A DNA stretch of 64,000 nucleotides, from positions 122,946,001 to 123,010,000 of the forward strand of contig OZ024742.1 of assembly GCA_964016885.1 (NCBI GenBank), written 5' to 3'. Each line of letters opens with the position of its first letter. The first letter of the stretch is position 1. Origin of the DNA: Eledone cirrhosa (Eukaryota). Position numbers and translations under genes: made by a program. This document shows, one piece after another, positions 1,025 through 36,085 of the stretch. The notes under the pieces were generated by a model. The model was not told where the DNA came from, made no database searches, and was given only the letters and a program-made list of their open reading frames with translations.

Positions 1025-1173
<149 letters not shown>

Positions 1174-1373
1174 ATACTTGGGGAGGGTCATATTTGTGTA
1201 ATATTGCCAGAATTAATAACAGAACACACTCACTGTTTGGTTGGTTTTCGCTTCTCGCTTCTGTGTCATTTATATCGGTAATATAACTTACTCGGTCCTC
1301 AATGTTGCCATTGACTGACCGGCGGTCAAAAATAATACAGTTACAATATAGACACAAACACATATATATTGTT

Positions 1374-1417
1374 TATCATAAATCTTTCGTTGCACATCTG
1401 CAACATCGTCAGTGGTG
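1374..1417 (-). ncRNA. Minimal type I hammerhead motif in the 3' pLTR
   Basis: Minus strand reads cacca CUGACGA u GUUGCA gaug UGCAAC GAAA GAUU UA ugaua. Core and stem II are intact; stem I is weak. Confidence 0.6.
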
Positions 1418-1884
1418 TTATATTATCCTCCTGTTGTATTGTATGTCTACGCCATTTTTATTCAGTCTGTCTATATATTTATTTATTTATTTGCTTCTTT
1501 GTTTATTTTATTTTGTCTTCTTTGCGCATGCGTTTGCGTGTGTATAGTGTTTTGTTTGCTGTGTGATGGGTGACTAGTGTGTGTTTATGTGCTTGTTGTT
1601 ATTGTGCTTGTGTATGTATTTATTTATTTATTTATTTATTTAATTTTATTTACTTATTTATACTTCTCTTAGGTCAGTGTTGTTTGTTTGCGTGTTGTTG
1701 TTATTCCATTCATTATTTCTGTTTAGCCTTGGTCTTCTAATTTCTATTTCACTAGCCTCTCTGATTTGCCTATCTACTGGGTCATTTCTATGTTTAGATA
1801 TTATTCTAATTTCTATGTTGTCTATGTTACCCTCATGTTGTTGTCTAGCATGTTCGTATAGTACTGACCCGTTTTTTCGTCCTT

Positions 1885-3700
1885 TTAGTTCCCCCAGTGT
1901 TGGTCTATCCTTTCACCTATGCTACGAGCTGTCTCACCTATGTATGTTGTTGTCATGTTTCTGCAGGTACCCTCTGTACATCTTATGCTATAGACTACGT
2001 TTCTAGTTTTACAGTTTATCCGGGGGTTCATCTTACATATGATACATTTCCTATTGGTACAGTGGGTTTTCTTAAAAGGGTAGGTTTTGCTGATCAGGTA
2101 TTTTATGGTGGTTCCTGGCTTTTCTACCACCTTTATTTTTAAGTGGGTCTTTCGCAGGGCCTTTCTACACTGGTTAGATAATTTCCCTCCAGGGGTAGCG
2201 TCCACAAGCATGACACTCTGGTATCTCTGGTTGTCGTACAATGAGGTGGCTTTCCCTATCTTATGTCTAGCCCTATCTAAACTATTCCATGATTTGCTCC
2301 TGTATAATGGGCAAATTCCTTTCATATCCAGTTCTATGAGGGTTTTATACTTCTCCATGGCTCCTTCGTATACTCTGACTCTGTCTCTTTGGTTGTAGCC
2401 AGAGAACTGCATGCGATTGATGAAGTGTTGGATGTGTCTTTCCATTTCTGTTGGGTCGCACATGCGGGAGACATTCTTCATCACCCGTACCAAATCTGCG
2501 ATCACAATATTAAACTTAGCACTAATGGACATTGCTGAGTTTTTGAGTATCAGGTATTTGGAGGCCATGGGTTTAGCATAGTGTGAGTTTGGGCTCTTTC
2601 GTCTATAGTGTTAATCCAGAGTTCTGTGTCTAACACAGGTAGTCTATTGTTAGGGTGTTTGGAAGGGAAGTCGATAGTTACAGTTATACTCTGGTGTATG
2701 GAATTAGTTATCTGCTGGATGCTTTCCATCGTGCTACGTTCTAATTCAAACTTGATAGTTCTCTCTAGTGGGGGTGTTCTTATAACTATATTGATATCGT
2801 CTACATAACGAGAGTACATGATGAGGTCTATGGAATCTCATTAAGGAGATCTTTAAGTCTCCTTTCCCACCATACCATGAAAAGGTTGACAACATCACCA
2901 GCTATGCTGACACCGATGGCTGCTCCCTCATTTTGGGTGTAGATCTTCTCGTTAAACTTAAATATGTGGCCCTTTTGGGTAGTTTAGATACTAGCCCCTA
3001 TTGCATGTGCGACCATTTTTCTTACCTGATCATTGTTTTGTGGGGTCCGTATAGCTTTGGTCCACCCAGTCCACCTTCCCATGGGAGTCTTTTTTGCCAT
3101 AGAGGTTATGGTGGGGGGACTACCTCTTATAGGTCTACTAGGGCAGGAACATCTAAGGTCATGGTTGTCTAGGTAGTCAGTGTCGTAGGTAAGTCTATGT
3201 AGGAGGCCCAGTTCGTCTGTGTCGACGTCGCAGAAATCCACCTCACTCTCAATGATCATCTCCACACATCTTTTCACAGCAAAATCAATGTTAATGGATG
3301 GGTACAGTGACACCACATCCATGCTGCCTATTATGCAGTTGGATAGTTTACTGTTTTTGTTGCACTCACTGATTCTGCTGAAGAGGTCCTCTGTACTGTC
3401 ACATACATCTGGGGACATCTTGATTATGGGTCGTATAACCATTGAGAGGAAGTAGGAGTCTTGTTGGTGGTCCTGTTGTCGGGTCGTCGACTGTCTTGTG
3501 GTCTTTGCGGAGCCCATACAAGGGTGGTATGCCATTGTTAGACGCCTTGAAGTTGTTGGCAGTGCGTCTGCTTGGCTTTAGGATGTCAGTCCACATCATC
3601 ATGTGAGCGTTGAGGATTTTCTCTCTCCCATCGTGTGTTTGTTGTGCAATTTCGCTCGTGTTGGTGATGTGGGGTTGCATAGCCTTGATGTAGTTCGGCA
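1885..3700 (-). pseudogene. Disrupted PLE reverse transcriptase / GIY-YIG endonuclease coding region
   Basis: ORF pieces 3399-3818, 2984-3535, 2550-2819 and 1885-2568 are consecutive frameshifted parts of one RT-EN polypeptide. Confidence 0.9.
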
Positions 3701-3812
3701 TGCTATCTATTGACATCCTACCAGACAATCCACAAGCAAATAAATAAATAAATATATAGACAGACTGAATAAAAATGGCGTAGACATACAATACAACAGG
3801 AGGATAATATAA

Positions 3813-3856
3813 CACCACTGACGATGTTGCAGATGTGCAACGAAAGATTTATGATA
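3813..3856 (+). ncRNA. Minimal hammerhead motif in the inverted 5' pLTR
   Basis: CUGACGA 3818-3824, stem II gttgca/tgcaac, GAAA 3842-3845. Confidence 0.6.
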
Positions 3857-4173: not shown

Positions 4174-4362
4174 GGTGGACACCTGATGTATATTGGGAGG
4201 TGACCACAGGAAAAAAACTTAATAGTTGAGTTCACTGTTTGTTTCTTACGAATGAAACAGGTCTAGCCCTGTTGAAATCATTTCCATAATAATTGTTTCT
4301 ACTTTTGGCAAAAGGCCAGCAAATTACCAGTGTATTACTGAAATATTGCTGAAATTAGAAGG

Positions 4363-6830
4363 TTGGCCCCTCTTGCACTGTGGAACAATTCTTTCGCGGT
4401 GATTGATTGGTTCAACGGCATATGTAACAAGGAACATTGCCGTTTTATCCAATTCGACATCAACAATTACTACTCCTCCATCACTTTACCAATTCTCCTT
4501 AGAGCTATCAATTTCGCTAAAACACTCACAGTGGTTAAGGATTTCGAAGTTGATGTCATCCTCAATGCCCGAAAGTCGGTGATTAATTTCGACGAGTCTA
4601 TTTGGATTAAAAAATCCAATAGCACCCCATTCGACGTGAGCATGGGCGCTTGTGATTCTGTGGAGGTTACTGATCTTAACGGCCTTTTCCTTCTTTTCTC
4701 CATCAAGGAAGAATTCCCCAACGCGGGCGGTGGTTTGTACCGTGACGATGGTCTTTTGACCATGACTAACTGCGGACCTCGTGCTTGCGACAGGTTCGGA
4801 AAAGAACTCACAGCCTTCTTTAAAGGCTTCAACCTCTCTACACAGGTTGAGGCCAATCTCTCGGTCGTTAATTACCTTGACGTTACCCTCAATTTATTGA
4901 ATGGGTTGTATTACCCGTATAGAAAGCCGAATGATACGCTTAATTATATAAGTAAGCATTCCAACCATCCTGCCAGCATAACCAAGAACCTGGTAAGAAA
5001 CGTTTCGTTGAGGCTTTCCCGTCTTTCCACCAACGAGCGTATTTTCAACGACCATTCCACTTATTACAATGAAGCTCTTGCTTGCTTGAAGTGGATTTGT
5101 CGATAAGGTAGCATATACAGAGTACGAAAATAGACCTAGAAGAAATAGATCCCGTCGCATTTGTTGGTATAACCCACCATATAATATGGAGGTGGCCACA
5201 CCATTAGCTAAGATTTTTCTTTCCCTTATTACGAAACATTTTCCCCCTACACATAAATATAGTAAAATTTTTAATAGAAATACTATTAAAATGTCATACA
5301 CTACGACTCCTAACCTTGCACATAACATCACAGCTTCAAATTTAGCTAAACTACCTAGCCGTAGGAACATGTGCAACCTTGTAGTTAGTACTAACTGTAA
5401 TTGTAAGAATCGGGTTGATTTCCCCCTATCCGGGAAATGCCTCTCTAGTAACATTGTCTACAAATGTAAGGTTGTAACACCCACGTCCCGTAGGGCCTAC
5501 ATAGGGTTAAACGCCAATAGATTCAAGCAGCGTCTTTACACGCATACCCATTCTTTTCGTTACCTTCTAAGAAGGAATATGACGTCACTTTCAGCTTATA
5601 TCTGGAGTCTAAAAGACAACCACACCCAATATAAGTTACACTGGGAGATCCTAGCTAGGGCTAGATCGTATAACGGAAATAAAATACCATATAACTTCTG
5701 CGCCGCTGAGGCCCTGGAAATACTCTACGCCACAGACCACATCTTAAACAAAAAATCTGAGGCAATTTCGGCTTGTAAACATAAATTGCACAAACATTTC
5801 CTGTATTAAAGCCCCACGTTATACCCTAATGGATAGTACGATCTATACGTGGATATTTTACGTCTTAATGTGGGAGCTAAGTATATGTTCTGTTTATACC
5901 ATTACTTATTTGCATAGGTAAGTATATATTACCCGTATGTTTCGGGAAGGTACGTATACCTTCTCGTACGTATATTTGATTGTTTATGTTATGGCGTATA
6001 AACATTTTTTTTTATTTTTTATTCTGGTACATATGGTTTGGCTATGTGTATACAGGAGTTTTGCATCTGTGTGAGTATGCAGGTTCGTACGTATGTAGGG
6101 CGTGTGTATATGTGTACTTCATGTTTTGGTTGACTTACGTCTCCGAACATTCGTGTATTTACATGTAGGTATGTGTGTGCGCTTGTTATTTACATATTTA
6201 TTTATTTATATACGTTTATATAATTATTTATTTATTTATTTATATACACGCATACACACACACACATATTTATATGTGCGTGGTTTTGTATACCTACGGT
6301 AAGTGTTTTGCGTATGCTTGTGTATGTACGTATTTGTTTGCGTGTATGTATTTATTTATTTCTATTACTTCTGTATTGTATTTATTTACTTTGTTCTTAA
6401 CTCTGTAGCGGAGATTCATTCGGTCTCCTAGTTAGAATGTTAGTCTACGACTTCTGCTATACCATTTACGTGGTTTTGTCTTTGCGTGCTATTGTTCTCC
6501 ACGCTCCACATATGACGTATTATCTTCGTTTTTTTCGTTGTATTGCCAGAGAACGTCTCTATGAACTACCTAAGAGAACATTAGTCTACGACCTCTTTTA
6601 TGCCATAAACGTGGTTCTGTCTTTGCGCGTAATTGTTTTTCACTGCTCCTATTAATGACGTATCTTATTCCTTTTTCCCCGTTCTTTGCCAGCGAACGTT
6701 TCCCTCCGGTTGCAACGTTTTTTGAAATATCCACTTCTGCGTTTACAGATTGACTTTGTTAGTTTCAGAAGATCCCGTTAAGGGTGAAAGCAGCGATTCT
6801 TTGCTTAAACTTTAATCTGTTATTTTAATA
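4363..6830 (+). mobile_element. Penelope-like element, Naiad-like, 5'-truncated, with long 3' UTR
   Basis: ORFs 4363-5106 and 5186-5809 contain FIQFDINNYYSSI, FDVSMGACDS, GLYRDDGL, NYLDVTL, YRKPN, CNCKNRVDFPLSGKC and NIVYKCKV...AYIGL. The UTR has a ~140 bp tandem duplication (6440-6705) and a degenerate HHR at 6762-6795. Confidence 0.9.
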
Positions 6831-11965: not shown

Positions 11966-11967
<2 letters not shown>

Positions 11968-13559
11968 CGAGGAAAACTATAGTTAAATTCGATGATAGCT
12001 ACTGGGTTCGCAAAGATAGACCTTCTAATTTTGATATCACAATGGGTTCTAATGATTCGGCGGAAGTAACTGATCTTGTGGGAATTTATATCACCCACAG
12101 ATTACAAGGAAAATTCAAGGATCTCCACGGTGGAATCTACCGTGACGATGCGCTCCTATTAGTTAAGCATATGAATAACCAGAATTTAGAAAGGATGCGT
12201 AAAAATATCAGAAAGCTTTTTAAGGAACTAGGATTAAATATTACATTTGAATATAACCTCAAAGAGGTCAATTTCCTTGATGTTACTTTCAATCTCAATA
12301 CAGATACGATTAAACCGTTCCATAAACTAAATGAGAACCTTAAATATGTAAATACGAGTTCTAACCATCCACTCTCTATAATTAAATCCATCCCTAGAAA
12401 TGTTTCTCTTAGAATCTCCCGCCTGTCGTCCAACCAACAAACCTTCAAAGAACATGCCGAATATTATGATGATGCACTTAGGAAAGCCGGTCACCTAGAT
12501 AATATAGAGTATATAGTCAAAGATCACCAAAACACCCAAAATAAATCCCATAGGAGTAGAAATAGCACAGAATCACCACCATACATACACTACCGCAATA
12601 GACACAATAATAGTCGCACACCACCAAACAGAAGGCGATGTAAGGAGTATATTTGGTACAACCCGGTCTATAACAACTCTATTAAAACCAATCTACCCTC
12701 AAAATTCTTTCGATTAGTTAAAAAACACTTTCCAACATCACATAAATATAATAAAATCTTAAACCCTAACACTATTCGACTTTCATATTCAACCGCCCCT
12801 AATATTGAACAACATATAAAAAAGCTTAACGCAAAACGGTTGTATAAACGCCTTCCAACACATAACAATACACGTAAAACATTAGCTATAACATCACAAA
12901 ACAACAAACAACATCCTGTCCTACATAAGCACCCTCATCAACCAATCCATGGCAATACAACAACGCAAAATTATAATTGCAACTGTGTCCAACCAGGAAT
13001 GTGTCCGTTGAACAATCAGTGTCTTGAACGCAACATCGTATACAAATGTACTATCGAATCGGATAGACAGAAGTGGTACTATGTGGGATCTACAGCCACC
13101 TCCTTCAAATCACGCCTTTATAGACATCGTTACTCGATAAAACATGAAAACCAGCGTTATGTAACAACACTCGCAGACAAGGCTTGGCAGCTGCGTGAAA
13201 ATAACCAACAATTTCACCTAAAGTGGGATATAATAGCGGCTGCTATACTCATGGTATTCTCATTAGAAACCCATTATATACTTGTTTGGCAGTAAATTAA
13301 TTTACCATCTGTCATATACTATCCCCTCTGTTTCTTCCTCTATTACTAATATAAATACTTCAATTTTTCTGATTTTATCCAATTTATCCAAAATCTCTGA
13401 AGAAGTGACAACTGATTATACATTTGCTATCGAATACTTGCTAACATTATATGATTACGCAAGCAGCGATACATAGGTATTCCGTCTGTTACAGAAACAT
13501 ATGTCAATACCTAATAAATTCCTTTTTTAAAAAAAGCACTTTCATTTTATATTCATCCT

Positions 13560-13562
<3 letters not shown>
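11966..13562 (+). mobile_element. Penelope-like element, Naiad-like, 5'-truncated at (TA)n
   Basis: The frame opens at the TA junction (ARKTIVKFDDSYWVRK...FDITMGS). ORF 12042-13295 has GGIYRDDALL, VNFLDVTF, YIWYNPVY, CNCVQPGMCPLNNQC (CxCx5Cx5C) and NIVYKCTI..YYVGST. The endonuclease C-terminus appears deleted near 13245. Confidence 0.92.
13396..13506 (+). ncRNA. Hammerhead-like motif with a large stem II insertion, at the PLE 3' end
   Basis: CUGAAGA 13397-13403, gtgaca...tgttac stem, then GAAA CAUAUG UC at 13494-13505. Stem I is poor. Confidence 0.5.
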
Positions 13563-19600: not shown

Positions 19601-21974
19601 GACGAAAAAGAAAATGGGGGTGGCGTGGTAGTAATAGTAGAGTTGTGGATAAGATGGAAGGGAAAGATGAAAGAAGGGTAGAGGAAGTAGTAGGAGACGA
19701 CGGGGAGGTGCGGTAGTAATAATAACACTATTAACAATAATAAAAGGACTGACATAAATGGTAGAGTGACCTTAAGGTTGATTGAGAGAGTAATTGCTTC
19801 TAAATATATCTATCTTTCTTAGTATTTCTGTAGGTAATACTGGCATCCTTAATGTGTCCACTGGTGGTAAAAATTGACCTGAAGTGTGATTGTTTCTAAA
19901 TATATTTATCTTAGTATTTCTGTAGGGAAAACTGTCTTTCTTAATTTGTTCATTGGCGTTAATGTTGAGTGCTTGTTGCAGTTTCGTCTGTGGTGGATGC
20001 ATTTAAATAGGGTCCGTATTTAGTGATAAAGTATGATTCTTTACTAATTCGTAGAATGTAGAAAGCGTTCTCTTTAAATCATTCTGAAATTGGGTTGTTC
20101 ATTAGAGGCGCAGGTGGCAATGTGTTTACTCAGTACTATTTTTCTGTATTCCTGTATATTAATTCGGGATCTATGAACGGTTATACCTTGACCGAGACTG
20201 TTTTTAGTTTGTCCTATGTACTGCTCTGGACATCCTAAGCAAGTTAACACATATATCAGGTTTTCTGATGCCCATGTGGAATTGTATTTCAGTGTAAACA
20301 ATGTCCTTGTTTGAAGCAGAACTCTGATCTCTCTATTAGGTTGACGCATATACCACAGTTGGGTCTTCCGCATTTTTTTTACTGTTGGTTTCGTTGTTAT
20401 GGTTGACTGGACTTTGGCCTGTGTTAGGATAATTTTCATTGATTTGGGTTGTCTTTTGTTCTTTATGATGCTGTGAGTTTGATTGATTTGGTTCATTCTA
20501 TGATCCCTTTTTAATAAAGGGATGTTCTGGAGGATGGTGTCGAAGGCTACATTGTTAAGGTGATTATGTGTGGAGATGTATGGTAGGGCTTTCACTTTCG
20601 ATTCATTCTTTAGTTCTGGGTGTCTAAGATCCTGGATACTCAGTTTTAGGGCACGTTGGAATCGATGGTTAATTAGGGATGGTGGGTAATTCCTGCTAAT
20701 AATTGTGTCTTTTAGTTCTTGTAGTCGTATGTAACAGGTGTTTCTATCAGATACTATTGTACATATCCTTTTGCATAGGTTGTAAGGGATATTTATTTTA
20801 GCGTGTCTCGGGTGGAATGATTTGAATGTAAGGTATTGCTTGGAGTCTGTGGGCTTATAGTATATGTCTGTTTCTATTTTTTTCTTAGATTTCTTGATAA
20901 GGATGTAGAGGAAAGGAAGTTGTTGATGGCTGTATTCCATGGACCGTTTTTGTGCAGATGGTGGTCCCAGATTTCTGTCTGCAGAATTTGCCATTGAATA
21001 CGTAATAGTTATTCTCCAAGACAAATTTGAGCTCTTCTATAAAAAATTCACTTATGATGCGGTGTGGGAGTTCATTGGAGAAATGTTCCAGCCATAATTG
21101 GATATTGGAATAAAGGTCGACTACATCAAAAGACACACTAGGGTCATTATTAAGTGGTTTGGGGAGGGGTTGGGCATAGATTATAAGTTGTCCCTTATGT
21201 AGCTTTTAATGTGTTTAAGAAATTGTTTTAATAAGATATCAAGGAAGTTACTGAGGCGATGGGTGTCGCAAGCGGGGCCTGCTATTATAGGTCTTAATTT
21301 GAGGTCATTAGGTGAGGGGACATTGATGAATATAAATATATATATATATCCAAAATTAAATTAAGGGTGTCATGTCAGAGAGACATGCGCTATATCCACT
21401 GTAGAATATTCTCCATGTTTCACAGATCTGAGGCTCCGTTGGATATTATGTCCAATCATGACATCTTAGGAGATAAGCTGAGATTAAGGGTTTGATGACG
21501 GAACTGAACGAGAAATGAGTTTAAGTTTTCAGTTTAATTTTTTAATTTCTTAGATGTGTTTGATTAAATAAATCAGTGAAAACAACATTAAATATACACA
21601 TGAGTTTTCCGACACTGACTAAAAAATTAGTAAAATTTTGAATTCAGAGTCTCATATTTTAATGCTGCTGACTAATATTGTTTCGGTGACATCTAGATAG
21701 TTTTACGGATTTTCCTAACATACAGATTACATTTGTTCTCAACAAACTTTACAATATCAAATTTAAGTGATAGTCCACTGAAAATGACCCCTTTACCACC
21801 ATCTACTGTGTGACCGTCATGCCACGTTTGACGATGTTAGAATGTCTTGTTCTTTGCTTTTAGGAGAGACAGCTTCAGCTAATAGGACGGCTCATCTGTC
21901 GATCTCTATCCAATGCACTATAGATATTCCTAATATGTGAGAAAGGTAGGGATTAATTTGTTAAGAATATTTCA

Positions 21975-27819: not shown

Positions 27820-28910
27820 GAGAGAGTGTGTGTGTGTGTGTGATACGTGTAAATATATATAAATACACACACATATACATATATATATATATATATATGT
27901 ATGCAGATATGCACTTACATACACACACATATATGTATATATATATATATATATAAATGGGTTTTGCGCGAAGGTGTAAGATATCAGCGTATATTTTCTT
28001 AGAAAAGTTATGGAAGTCATAAAAACATGTGTATAAGTCCCCACATACACTCATAAAGGCATGCATTTATTTGTTTGGCAAAAAACATATACCTCTATAA
28101 ATATTTTTTTTTTGCGTTATGTAAATATTATATGGCTTTATGTCAACCATTAAACCGACCATCGGCAATATTATCTGTTCTATTAAACGACCTATACTAA
28201 TCCTTACATGTGTGTGGCTGTACGTGTGTATGTGTTTGTATTTTTTGTTTGTGTGTTCGTATATGTGGATATCACCATTCGCTGAATTAAAAGCTTTCAG
28301 TGAAGGTAAAACAATGAAAATGAATCAATAAAACAGAACTCAAATACAGTATACCACCTTAATCTAACATGCTGCAACTTACACTAATTTTCCAATACTA
28401 AATTTCCCCACTTGTTTATTGTTTTAAGTGTATTATTTATTAGAATGTCTACCATTATCTAGAGAGTCAAATCTTCTACAGAGGCTCCCATGTGCGTCAA
28501 TTATCTTTGTGTTGTGATTAATTAGTTGCAGGCCATCTCTGTTTGAGCAGAACTGTTATCGCACTCATTCTATTCGTAATCATCCTATCTGTCTCTATAA
28601 AAATATATACAGCTGTATTAGTCAATGTGTAAACCTTTGTTTAAGATGTTTGAGTTAGCACTAATGACATCTGGTTGATGTTTCTAAGGTATAGCTTCCT
28701 CAACTGTCCCTTAATAACATTATGCCCTGATTATAAGTTCGTTCGCTTGTTATGTATAATTCTTTTATTTGTATGTATGCGAGTCTGCTTCACACTTTTT
28801 TTTGCTTATATGTGTACGTTCTTTGTTATGTGTAGGTTTATTTGTGTGTGCGTTTCAAATTGAGTACGTGTCTTGCGAATAAATTCATGTATATATATAT
28901 ATATATATAT

Positions 28911-29230
28911 ATGTGAATATAGACATAGAATATTCGAAAATATTCTGTATGTTTATAATAAACATTTTGAAGACCTAATCGCTATAGAATAGAATACGTC
29001 ACGTATTACAATTAGATTCTCGATAAAAGCAAGGGAAGTAATCTACGCGTTTCATTCTTGTTAGAAATCATCAGGACTACATATCCAGTGCTTTTATCGA
29101 GAATGACACAGCTAGAGACTTATAGAATACTTAGCTGTGTACAGGAACTGGTTTGAAAGAGCGGTTGCCGGTCCGGCAGAAATTAGAAATTGGAATAAAT
29201 GCTCTGAAATAGCGATATATATGTGAATAT
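28911..29230 (-). mobile_element. Retrozyme-like 310 nt non-coding unit (copy 1)
   Basis: Direct repeat atgtgaatat at 28911 and 29221 gives a period of 310. It contains an HHR and is homologous to 55885-56270. Confidence 0.7.
29016..29104 (-). ncRNA. Type I hammerhead ribozyme with extended stem I
   Basis: Minus strand reads GUAGUC CUGAUGA u UUCU aaca AGAA u GAAA CGCG UA GAUUAC, plus a perfect 16-bp distal stem I (29016-29031 / 29089-29104). Confidence 0.82.
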
Positions 29231-29248
29231 ATATATATATATTATATA

Positions 29249-29500
29249 AATAATAAAAAGACGATTGGTTTTGTCTTCATTACACTTATTGTCAAGTGAC
29301 GCGGGTTTCCGTATTGATCAGCTGAAGGTTCGATCTGCATCGATCTAGCCCGACTCTAGAATCAAAAGCTCGTCGGACCTCTGCTGTGGTCCGACGAACT
29401 TTTGATGCAGATCAAACCTTCAGCTGATCAATAGCGAAACGCGCGTCACTACTCAATAAACGTAATGAAGACATAACGAATGTTCCTTTTTATTATTATT
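29249..29500. repeat. ~250 bp foldback whose two arms each carry an HHR-like motif (CCGACGA core variant)
   Basis: The arms are reverse-complementary around tctgctgt. Right arm 29386-29452 reads guggu CCGACGA acuuuugau...aucaauagc GAAA CGCGCG UC acuac. Confidence 0.75.
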
Positions 29501-33930: not shown

Positions 33931-34382
33931 ATGTGAGATATTCTGTATTCTAATATGTCTGAATTATGTGAGATATTCTGTATTCTAATATGTCTGAATT
34001 ATGTGAGATATTCTGTATTCTAATATGTCTGAATTATGTGAGATATTCTGTATTCTAATATGTCTGAATTATGTGAGATATTCTGTATTCTAATATGTCT
34101 GAATTATGTGAGATATTCTGTATTCTAATATGTCTGAATTATGTGAGATATTCTGTATTCTAATATGTCTGAATTATGTGAGATATTCTGTATTCTAATA
34201 TGTCTGAATTATGTGAGATATTCTGTATTCTAATGTCTGAATAATGTGAGATATTCTGTATTCTAATATGTCTGAATTATGTGAGATATTCTGTATTCTA
34301 ATATGTCTGAATTATGTGAGATATTCTGTATTCTAATATGTCTGAATAATGTGAGATATTCTGTATTCTAATATGTCTGAAT
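33931..34382. repeat. 35 bp minisatellite, ~13 copies
   Basis: Unit atgtgagatattctgtattctaatatgtctgaatt, with one 33 bp variant. Confidence 0.97.
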
Positions 34383-35565
34383 ATATATACACGGAACAAG
34401 ATTATACGTAAATATTTGAAAGTGTCAATTGATACTCCGAAAGCAAATATTTTCTGTTTATGGAATATAAAGTTTTATTACAGAAAATGAAATACATTGA
34501 TGATCCCCCCCCCCCACACATATAATCATACATACATACACACACACATATACATATATACATGCAAACAAACATACATATATACACACACTCATACACA
34601 CACACATACACATCCTCTCGCTATATATATAGACATATATATATATATGTGTGTGTGTGTGTGCACTCATACGCAGGCATTTAGAGAGAGTGAGAGTGAG
34701 CGAGTGAAAGAGTGAGAGTGGGAATGCGAGAGAGAGGAGGGACGTTAAAAGAAAATATGATTTTATATCTATTGTTAGTTTCCATTGGATGAGGTTTTGG
34801 AAAATAATTTACCACGTCATCTTCGTATTTATTAGCAAAATGATTATCAATAAGTAGGAAAATGAAATGAAACATTCTAAATTCATCTTGACGGAGTTGG
34901 CAAGGAATCATACTTCTAATATATTGATATTCCTGAGTGTAGAGAAATAAATTGATCCAGGAGTTTACAAGATCAATACCCAACAGAACAGGATGTTGCT
35001 TGATTCAATATACTACAATTAGATTTTGCATTAATACTTTAAATAAATGCTGGCGAAAATATATGTTTAGCTTTAAATCTTCAATATGCTAAATATATGA
35101 TTTTTATTTCCATATTTAGAGTTACATTTCCCTTGAATATAATATGATTTACAATTCAGATTCTCATCTTAAAGAAATACTATAGTTTCTAAATTGTATG
35201 TTGTAAATCGTGTGGGCGATATGTTTTAAAACTTGTAACTTTTACACTATAATATATGTTTTCCAGTATTAAAACCGTCTTTCTTGTGTTAAGTTACAGG
35301 TTTAGTCACTTCAAATGGGAATAAAAAAAAAGAGCGTGAACAGTTTGTTACACACACAACAATTTTGAATTTTATTATCTAATTTTTTAATATTTCAACA
35401 AATATCAAAATTAAATTACTACTATTAACATTATGTATATAATTGTATAATAATTGTTTCTACTTTAGGCACAAGGCCAGCAATAACCCAGTGCATTACT
35501 GGTACTTTATTTTATCGACCCCGTAAGGATGAAAGGCAAAGTCAACCTCGGCGGGATTTGAACTC

Positions 35566-35663
35566 AGATCGTAAAGGGACGTAACTATGCTGGAAAGCAT
35601 GGCGTCCGACCCTCTACCGATACTGCCAATCCACCGCCATCATAATTGTATAATAATATCATC

Positions 35664-35740
<77 letters not shown>

Positions 35741-35923
35741 CATCTCTCTCTCTCTATCTCTCTCTTTCTCTTTCTTTCTTTCTTTCTCTTTCTCATGCTT
35801 GAATTATTGTCCTACACCACCCAGATCGTAAAGGGACGTAACTATGCTGGAAAGCATGGCGTCCGACCCTCTACCGATACTGCCAATCCACCGCCATCAT
35901 AATTGTATAATAATATCATCCCA

Positions 35924-36003
<80 letters not shown>

Positions 36004-36085
36004 CATCTCTCTCTCTCTATCTCTCTCTTTCTCTTTCCTTCTTTCTTTCTCTTTCTCATGCTTGAATTATTGTCCTACACCACCC
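35566..36085. repeat. ~257 bp tandem duplication (SINE head fragment + (CT)n)
   Basis: Units start at cagatcgtaaagggac (35566 and 35822). Confidence 0.93.

Follow-up and report, generated by a model that had tools for sequence, protein, structure and literature searches.

A young hammerhead-bearing tandem repeat family in Eledone cirrhosa with the features of a non-LTR retrozyme probably mobilized by PLEs

The window analyzed here is a stretch of 64,000 nucleotides of Eledone cirrhosa contig OZ024742.1, in which a 310-nt unit with a predicted hammerhead ribozyme lies on the minus strand, a related copy lies on the plus strand and remains of Penelope-like elements (PLEs) are present (Table 1). 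The window also contains, at 4342–5806 and 20077–21264, remnants that were labeled by their motifs as a second Hydra-like PLE and a Penelope/Poseidon-like PLE. The rest of the window includes 13 copies of a 35-nt minisatellite (33931–34382, 98% identity), a 257-nt tandem duplication (35565–36085) and ORF fragments at 53677–54830 which we take to resemble a Helitron helicase.

Table 1. Positions of the hammerhead units, their parts and the candidate enzyme donors within the window.
Feature	Position	Strand	Remarks
Broken Neptune-like PLE ending in (TA)n	1168..3850	-	Its family is a candidate enzyme donor
Young Hydra-clade PLE, truncated at 5' and flanked by (TA)n tracts	11967..13562	+	Second candidate enzyme donor
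(TA)n target tract at element 3' end	28890..28912	.	
Subfamily A insertion	28905..29232	-	310-nt unit copied over 1.05 turns; GC content 34%; starts (5') near unit position 123 and stops (3') at site 1
Stem I, 3' strands (proximal and distal)	29016..29043	-	Distal arm 29104-29089 pairs with 29031-29016
Predicted cut after GUA	29044/29043	-	Core and stem III architecture as in PMC4209133 and PMC7229834
GAAA core (29053-29050), minimal palindromic stem III (ACGCGU), A17	29044..29053	-	
Stem II	29054..29067	-	4 bp; basal U.U pair
Hammerhead core CUGAUGA (C3-A9)	29068..29074	-	
Proximal stem I, 5' strand	29075..29080	-	6 bp with 29043-29038
Distal stem I, 5' arm	29089..29104	-	Perfect 16 bp; covariation across subfamilies
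Tail between putative RT start sites 1 and 2	29182..29214	-	From end mapping and genome-wide junction counts
Site 1	29215, repeated at 28905	-	
Site 2	mostly 29189, range ~29191-29182	-	
(TA)n tract at element 5' end	29227..29243	.	
Subfamily B fragment	55794..55866	+	Ends at the tail site, then TA
Subfamily B copy	55879..56272	+	~1.25 units, period 315, ends at site 1
Subfamily B hammerhead core	56099-56105	+	A6 replaced by C; long stem ~56071-56161, with the cut predicted after 56134

The initial annotation of this DNA had described a minus-strand type I hammerhead with a complete core and a perfect 16-bp distal stem I, which is borne out by both descriptor and fold. A strict hammerhead descriptor matched once in the window against no match in 200 order-1 shuffles, and the unit folded with a z-score of −4.8, which was equaled by none of 100 shuffled controls; the active hammerhead fold was computed to lie 6.5 kcal/mol above the minimum-energy fold. 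No match for the unit was obtained in Rfam at the gathering score. The hammerhead is of type I and the element has no LTR, so that it lacks the type III hammerheads within two LTRs by which plant LTR retrozymes are recognized. The unit was also confirmed to lie between TA tracts with a period of 310; the feature previously taken as its terminal direct repeat, however, is about 17 nt of mostly AT sequence, being the overlap of a copy of more than one turn and not an LTR. Adjoining the unit is a long imperfect palindrome (29246–29499) with 96-nt arms that are 81% complementary and an inner 19-nt hairpin, which would seem to be an independent insertion, MITE-like or fold-back, into the same TA tract.

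The related DNA near 55.9 kb had been reported as collinear with the reverse complement of the unit over 55885–56270. This was found to be true of three segments only, with 75–88% identity; the remainder differs, with a different hairpin and a hammerhead of its own at 56099 that had been overlooked, and the copy was assigned to a separate subfamily (B). In the window, subfamily B consists of a full unit (~55956–56272) and partial units at 55879–55955 and 55794–55866. Its core here reads CUGCGGA, whereas the other four of the five copies detected by exact pattern carry CUGAGGA. In a third subfamily (C), with 1,184 matches in the genome (e.g., loci L246–L275), the C3-G8 core pair is swapped for U3-A8; among the first 100 of these matches, 92 were U-A, seven C-G, one C-A and none U-G. 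Subfamily C is older, occurs in short arrays and shows covariation in stem II. The U3-A8 variant has been reported in the PLEs of Schistosoma (PMC4209133), where the compensatory core pair is the same as that of subfamily C; in Schistosoma these are minimal hammerheads within PLE pLTRs, in contrast to the full stem III inside a retrozyme unit that is found in subfamily C.

Further hammerhead repeats were encountered in the genome. A fourth, older subfamily at L133:1997–2325 and L348:2750–3166 has about 79% identity to C, a canonical CUGAUGA core and a short stem III. A second, unrelated hammerhead repeat at L074 (G000:C1:36894800–36902000), also seen at L065, L075, L190 and L219, has a tandem period of about 500 nt, a stem II with U.U as its basal pair, an ACUAGU palindrome and an internal TA run, and is probably another retrozyme family. 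A family at L074, L078, L196, L202, L207 and L239, with a stem II nearly identical to that of subfamily A, ends in TA at two sites separated by approximately 66 nt, and its inverted insertions are short; this is likely to be the 3' end of another PLE.

To assess conservation of the hammerhead, 16 sequences were aligned; 95.7% of the cells were paired and 12 of the 22 pairs showed double changes, although these sequences represent only about four lineages, so that the covariation amounts to few events and the score is inflated by relatedness. None of 500 shuffles scored as high, and slid controls were 33–50% paired. These compensatory changes fit a hammerhead fold that may be under selection. 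Hammerheads with a palindromic minimal helix III are of the type that cleaves as a dimer (PMC7229834; PMC4209133), and self-cleavage in vitro has been reported for just one of nine Xenopus retrozyme dimers (bioRxiv 10.64898/2026.07.22.740005). The U.U pair together with the minimal stem III leads to a prediction of weak hammerhead activity for subfamily A.

Copies were counted in the 3.0-Gb genome by exact pattern matching. Subfamily A cores numbered at least 14,912 (12,691 + 2,221), with no match for the reversed control patterns, and a motif common to all subfamilies gave 21,556 matches. Subfamily A occupies about 4.6 Mb with singleton changes at 0.03% per base, and is a very young family. 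For the anatomy of its insertions, the unit was numbered from the predicted cut and insertions were mapped in 25 + 60 + 18 loci, nearly all of them on contig C1. Most of the mapped insertions comprise a pair of arms in head-to-head orientation with (TA)n tracts on either side, and these tracts would mask target-site duplications, which in non-LTR retrozymes exceed 4 bp when present. The arms contain 0.3–27 units each, with more than one unit in 95% of the 108 arms, and the units are 308–311 nt in length. The tandem copies for which the initial annotation had proposed to look genome-wide are the rule. The extra base of the 311-nt units was considered as a ligation scar and discarded as such, since it lies two bases beyond the cut and restores pairing in stem I.

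It had also been proposed that these copies might turn out to occur only as pLTRs attached to PLE ORFs. A unit which was merely the pLTR of an autonomous PLE, its copies being truncated ends, would readily account for the tail described below, the inversion and the (TA)n target, all of which are PLE features (PMC8557442), and the search for a parent element covered three PLE families. Against this, the units run head to tail with no intervening ORF in all mapped multi-unit arrays, the unit was the pLTR of a PLE ORF in none of 78 mapped family-A loci and the one family-A copy adjoining a PLE ORF does so across a TA tract (L214). Very little probability is therefore attached to this explanation.

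The outer (3') ends of the arms were found at two internal sites, namely position 139 (site 1) and about 163–172 (site 2) past the predicted cut. Exact junctions with TA in the whole genome numbered 1,164 at site 1, 1,024 at site 2 and none at the cut. The inner (5') ends, on the other hand, are spread around the unit as would be expected of the permuted copies for which the initial annotation had proposed to look, with only one of 108 lying within 5 nt of the cut; the spread is uneven (chi-square p = 0.0002), with an excess near positions 62–93.

Of 61 insertions, 54 were inverted and all 54 of these had one end of each kind, although 41 of the 54 had been chosen as pairs by design. The same arrangement was seen in all 13 inverted insertions chosen on site 1 alone, in all 14 resolved insertions chosen on site 2 alone (L289 being unresolved and three others single-armed) and in all 14 chosen on internal motifs (L031 being ambiguous). 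In subfamily C the two sites and the distance between them are retained, the tail sequence being different; this subfamily also provides the exception to the rule of one site per arm in the form of an inversion (L255) with site 1 at both ends. In inversions of the autonomous PLEs of the same genome, a short end is likewise paired with a tailed one (three of three Neptune-like and one of one Hydra). No account of such a rule was found in the retrozyme and PLE literature on insertion anatomy that was covered, which was limited.

Among the traits described for PLEs are truncated 5' ends, a 5' copy in inverted orientation and a tail of 30–40 bp at one end (Craig et al., PMC8557442), and targeting of (TA)n has been described for the Hydra and Naiad elements (PMC8557442). 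A PLE protein was shown in vitro to cut and extend both strands, starting at two internal positions downstream of the hammerhead, with the tail formed by the stretch between them, a behavior called unique to PLEs (Frangieh et al., PMC11167929). The insertions of the unit combine two putative internal start sites with a one-ended tail, truncated 5' ends and inversion, and the two-site tail together with the inversions supports the involvement of a PLE. Priming at site 1 by annealing to an internal AUAUAU run was considered and set aside, as this leaves site 2 unexplained and the PLE protein PAc initiates without homology (PMC11167929).

Two young, intact families of autonomous PLE that insert in (TA)n coexist with the unit in this genome. 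The Hydra-clade family has a 774-aa ORF with RWK, DKT and CxCX5C motifs and copies that are 97–100% identical, and the Neptune-like family, so labeled on the basis of its motifs (a linker zinc finger, plus GIY-YIG at the C terminus), has ORFs of more than 1,000 aa that are 99.7–99.9% identical among five copies. Pfam gave nothing for the full ORFs of either family, apart from GIY-YIG on one fragment (E 4e-5); in the Atlas, RT, HTH_animal and GIY-YIG clusters were found. Their tails are about 110 nt (Hydra) and 45–60 nt (Neptune-like). It should be noted that the 3' UTR of the Hydra-clade copy in the window contains no more than a hammerhead-like half core and that its tail of about 110 nt exceeds the 30–40 nt usually cited. 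The unit itself does not have the ORF with RT and GIY-YIG between pLTRs which an autonomous EN+ PLE possesses. No sequence shared with the unit was detected in three PLE families (Hydra and two Neptune-like, including an older one; 30 loci each) of a genome that has further PLE families. A likeness between site 1 and the Neptune-like elements (ATATC..TTTC) was judged too weak to count.

Chimeras were present at two of 30 subfamily C loci (some of these loci overlap); both are flanked by TA tracts and lack TA where the two parts meet. In the first (L254/L276), a 5'-truncated Neptune-like ORF stops in mid-protein and is followed by a unit ending at site 1. In the second (L250/L333), a tailed Neptune-like arm leads into a unit fragment, and a unit arm terminating at site 2 is joined to it head to head. 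Both structures are what template switching would produce, the alternative being insertion followed by deletion. As judged from these joints, the chimeras point to Neptune-like PLEs as the possible partner. No chimera involving subfamily A, or Hydra, was seen in the mapped loci. The PLE beside L084 and those near L273, L214 and L348 were rejected as chimeras, with TA or unrelated DNA intervening in each.

The variation within and between arrays was then compared for 470 full units. Pairwise changes averaged 0.31 within the same arm, 0.27 between opposite arms and 2.55 between arrays, all read from the assembly, the polishing of which could make units look more alike. L182, which contains two insertions, was left out of the variant and arm-haplotype counts. 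The two arms of an insertion were of one haplotype in 36 of 36 cases (mean of 6.3 and maximum of 16 among 10,000 shuffles), which fits rolling-circle copying of one monomer. Among the 49 arrays of at least four units there were 20 haplotypes, each fixed in every unit; nine of the arrays had a private variant present in every unit, in eight cases in both arms. This pattern is most simply explained by one monomer having been copied many times in one event.

It could be argued that the homogeneity and the inversions are artefacts of assembly, collapsed or polished repeats being apt to appear homogeneous. This is scarcely credible in view of the array-specific haplotypes, of a strict site 1/site 2 rule that is common to the autonomous PLEs and of the 14 head-to-head joints present in an independent set of contigs (run X2). 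Three other runs with other organism labels (X1, X3 and X6) each gave one 340-nt contig of the unit at a depth of 10–15 and nothing else, for which trace host DNA is the simplest reading. These contigs (310 + 30 letters) were dismissed as evidence of a circle, as they are closed assembly loops and tandem DNA gives one equally.

Another source of homogeneous arrays would be growth in place, by unequal exchange or slippage as in satellites, following insertion of monomers or dimers by a PLE. Local growth has been proposed for vertebrate retrozymes (bioRxiv 10.64898/2026.07.22.740005) and also predicts that both arms share haplotypes. It is difficult to reconcile with the variants not fixed within arrays, of which 44 of 49 were singletons, compared with the 30–60% expected under a coalescent-like stepwise model, and the other five were never in adjacent units. 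Local growth as the source of the arrays appears highly unlikely, though a very recent burst of it may have taken place. It would explain the array at L158 (G000:C1:43586400–43594250), where a pair of variants, one of which occupies the base immediately following the cut, reappears jointly every seven units. This pattern suggests a multimeric template or a block duplication and is not expected from a monomer circle.

The 7-unit period of L158 is also in keeping with the same element and PLE enzyme acting on a long, uncleaved linear multimer transcribed from a homogeneous array, with a circle being unneeded. In vitro, uncleaved or unprocessed RNA was the dominant PLE substrate and the hammerhead was dispensable for insertion (PMC11167929), and the hammerhead of the unit is predicted to be weak. 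However, 5'-truncated copying of a linear template can only shorten arrays, yet the arms reach 27 units; 20 haplotypes fixed in every unit of 49 arrays need a monomer bottleneck; and the hammerhead fold has been kept through compensatory changes. A linear template is thus considered unlikely, while retaining more weight than local growth.

The reading that is considered probable is that the unit is a non-autonomous non-LTR retrozyme, the 310-nt circle of which is copied into (TA)n by a PLE RT through rolling-circle, target-primed synthesis. Its basis at the DNA level comprises the unit, the covariation of the fold, the arrays, the two fixed 3' ends, the variable 5' ends, the head-to-head arms and the (TA)n flanks. 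In this scheme, arrays would be transcribed and adjacent hammerheads would pair through the palindromic stem III and then cut, with a host ligase closing the monomer into a 310-nt circle which, once alone, would be spared from cutting by its weak stem III. The PLE protein would cut both strands of a (TA)n tract and each 3' end would prime a cDNA, one from site 1 (139 nt beyond the cut) and the other from site 2, which lies 24–33 nt further. Each polymerase would circle for 0.3–27 turns, after which the two cDNAs would join 5' to 5', or one arm alone would be fixed. The copy in the window would probably represent such a one-arm product of 1.05 turns. With a single hammerhead it is unable itself to release a unit-length circle, and it is probably a dead-end product. 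The initial annotation had read this copy as that of a retrozyme using a PLE RT, and at the genomic level that reading gains support from the tandem copies, the spread 5' ends, the two-site tail and the inversions.

A more specific version is offered tentatively, as a possibility to which less than even weight is given: that a single rolling-circle event gives rise to each inverted array, the two cut ends of the (TA)n tract priming at two ruler-spaced sites of the same circle with one polymerase per arm, and that the enzyme is Neptune-like and has no pLTR kinship with the unit, its link with the circle lying in the two chimeras that connect both RNAs with no intervening TA. If this were true, the circle would parasitize a PLE by its shape and spacing and would not be descended from its pLTR, and an intact, 99.8%-identical Neptune-like ORF with a 310-nt circle would provide a ready in vitro system for the chemistry of inverted insertion by retrozymes and PLEs.

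Which enzyme mobilizes the non-LTR retrozymes of animals, and whether the circle is the template, are matters of hypothesis in PMC4209133, PMC7229834 and bioRxiv 10.64898/2026.07.22.740005, and the mechanism of tandem and inverted PLE insertion is named as open in PMC8557442. This young family records both questions in its DNA, with ends matching the sites at which PLEs start in vitro, one site per arm and one haplotype per insertion. With candidate intact enzymes in the same genome, the model of a circle copied by a PLE is directly testable. An element of this kind was to be expected; if it is indeed copied from a circle, the manner in which RNA circles enter genomes would become testable.

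Compared with EN+ PLEs (Poseidon PAc, PMC11167929; Hydra and Neptune, PMC8557442), the unit has in common two putative starts downstream of the hammerhead, a tail confined to one end, truncated 5' ends, a 5' copy in inverted orientation and an AT-rich or (TA)n target. It differs in having no ORF and in forming many-unit arrays of 310 nt, in contrast to the partial tandems of a 3–4-kb element. The unit is likely to behave as a PLE-mobilized element and not as an autonomous PLE, and is placed among the retrozymes by its DNA features, with cleavage and circle predicted.

The features of non-LTR retrozymes found here are a type I hammerhead, short low-GC tandem repeats, the lack of coding sequence and LTRs and coexistence with PLEs. 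Like the retrozymes described from coral, mussel and axolotl (PMC7229834), which are non-coding tandem repeats of 170–400 nt with low GC and thousands of copies, subfamily A has one type I hammerhead per unit; its palindromic minimal helix III is as in the axolotl HHR_Amex1, and HHR_Amex2 likewise has U.U as the basal pair of helix II. Circles and cleavage have been demonstrated for those retrozymes, whereas the present unit is known from DNA and, as far as could be judged, is unrelated to them. The accessible part of PMC7229834 contains no report of fixed two-site ends, inverted arrays or (TA)n targeting, and its main text gave no match for "inverted". The non-LTR retrozymes of vertebrates (bioRxiv 10.64898/2026.07.22.740005) resemble the unit in their similar length, in ranging from monomers to multimers and in co-occurring with PLEs. 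In Xenopus, 24 of 57 families match Repbase, mostly PLE termini, whereas no matching pLTR was found for the unit in three families, and its link to PLEs lies in insertion anatomy and two chimeras; the accessible part of that study includes no mollusc. The family was not found described in the cephalopod and octopus ribozyme or retrozyme literature covered, which was limited, and the accessible part of the 2026 O. vulgaris repeat annotation gave no match for "ribozyme". It is likely that the family is a previously undescribed one among the non-LTR retrozymes, and the footprint of its mechanism is unusually clear.
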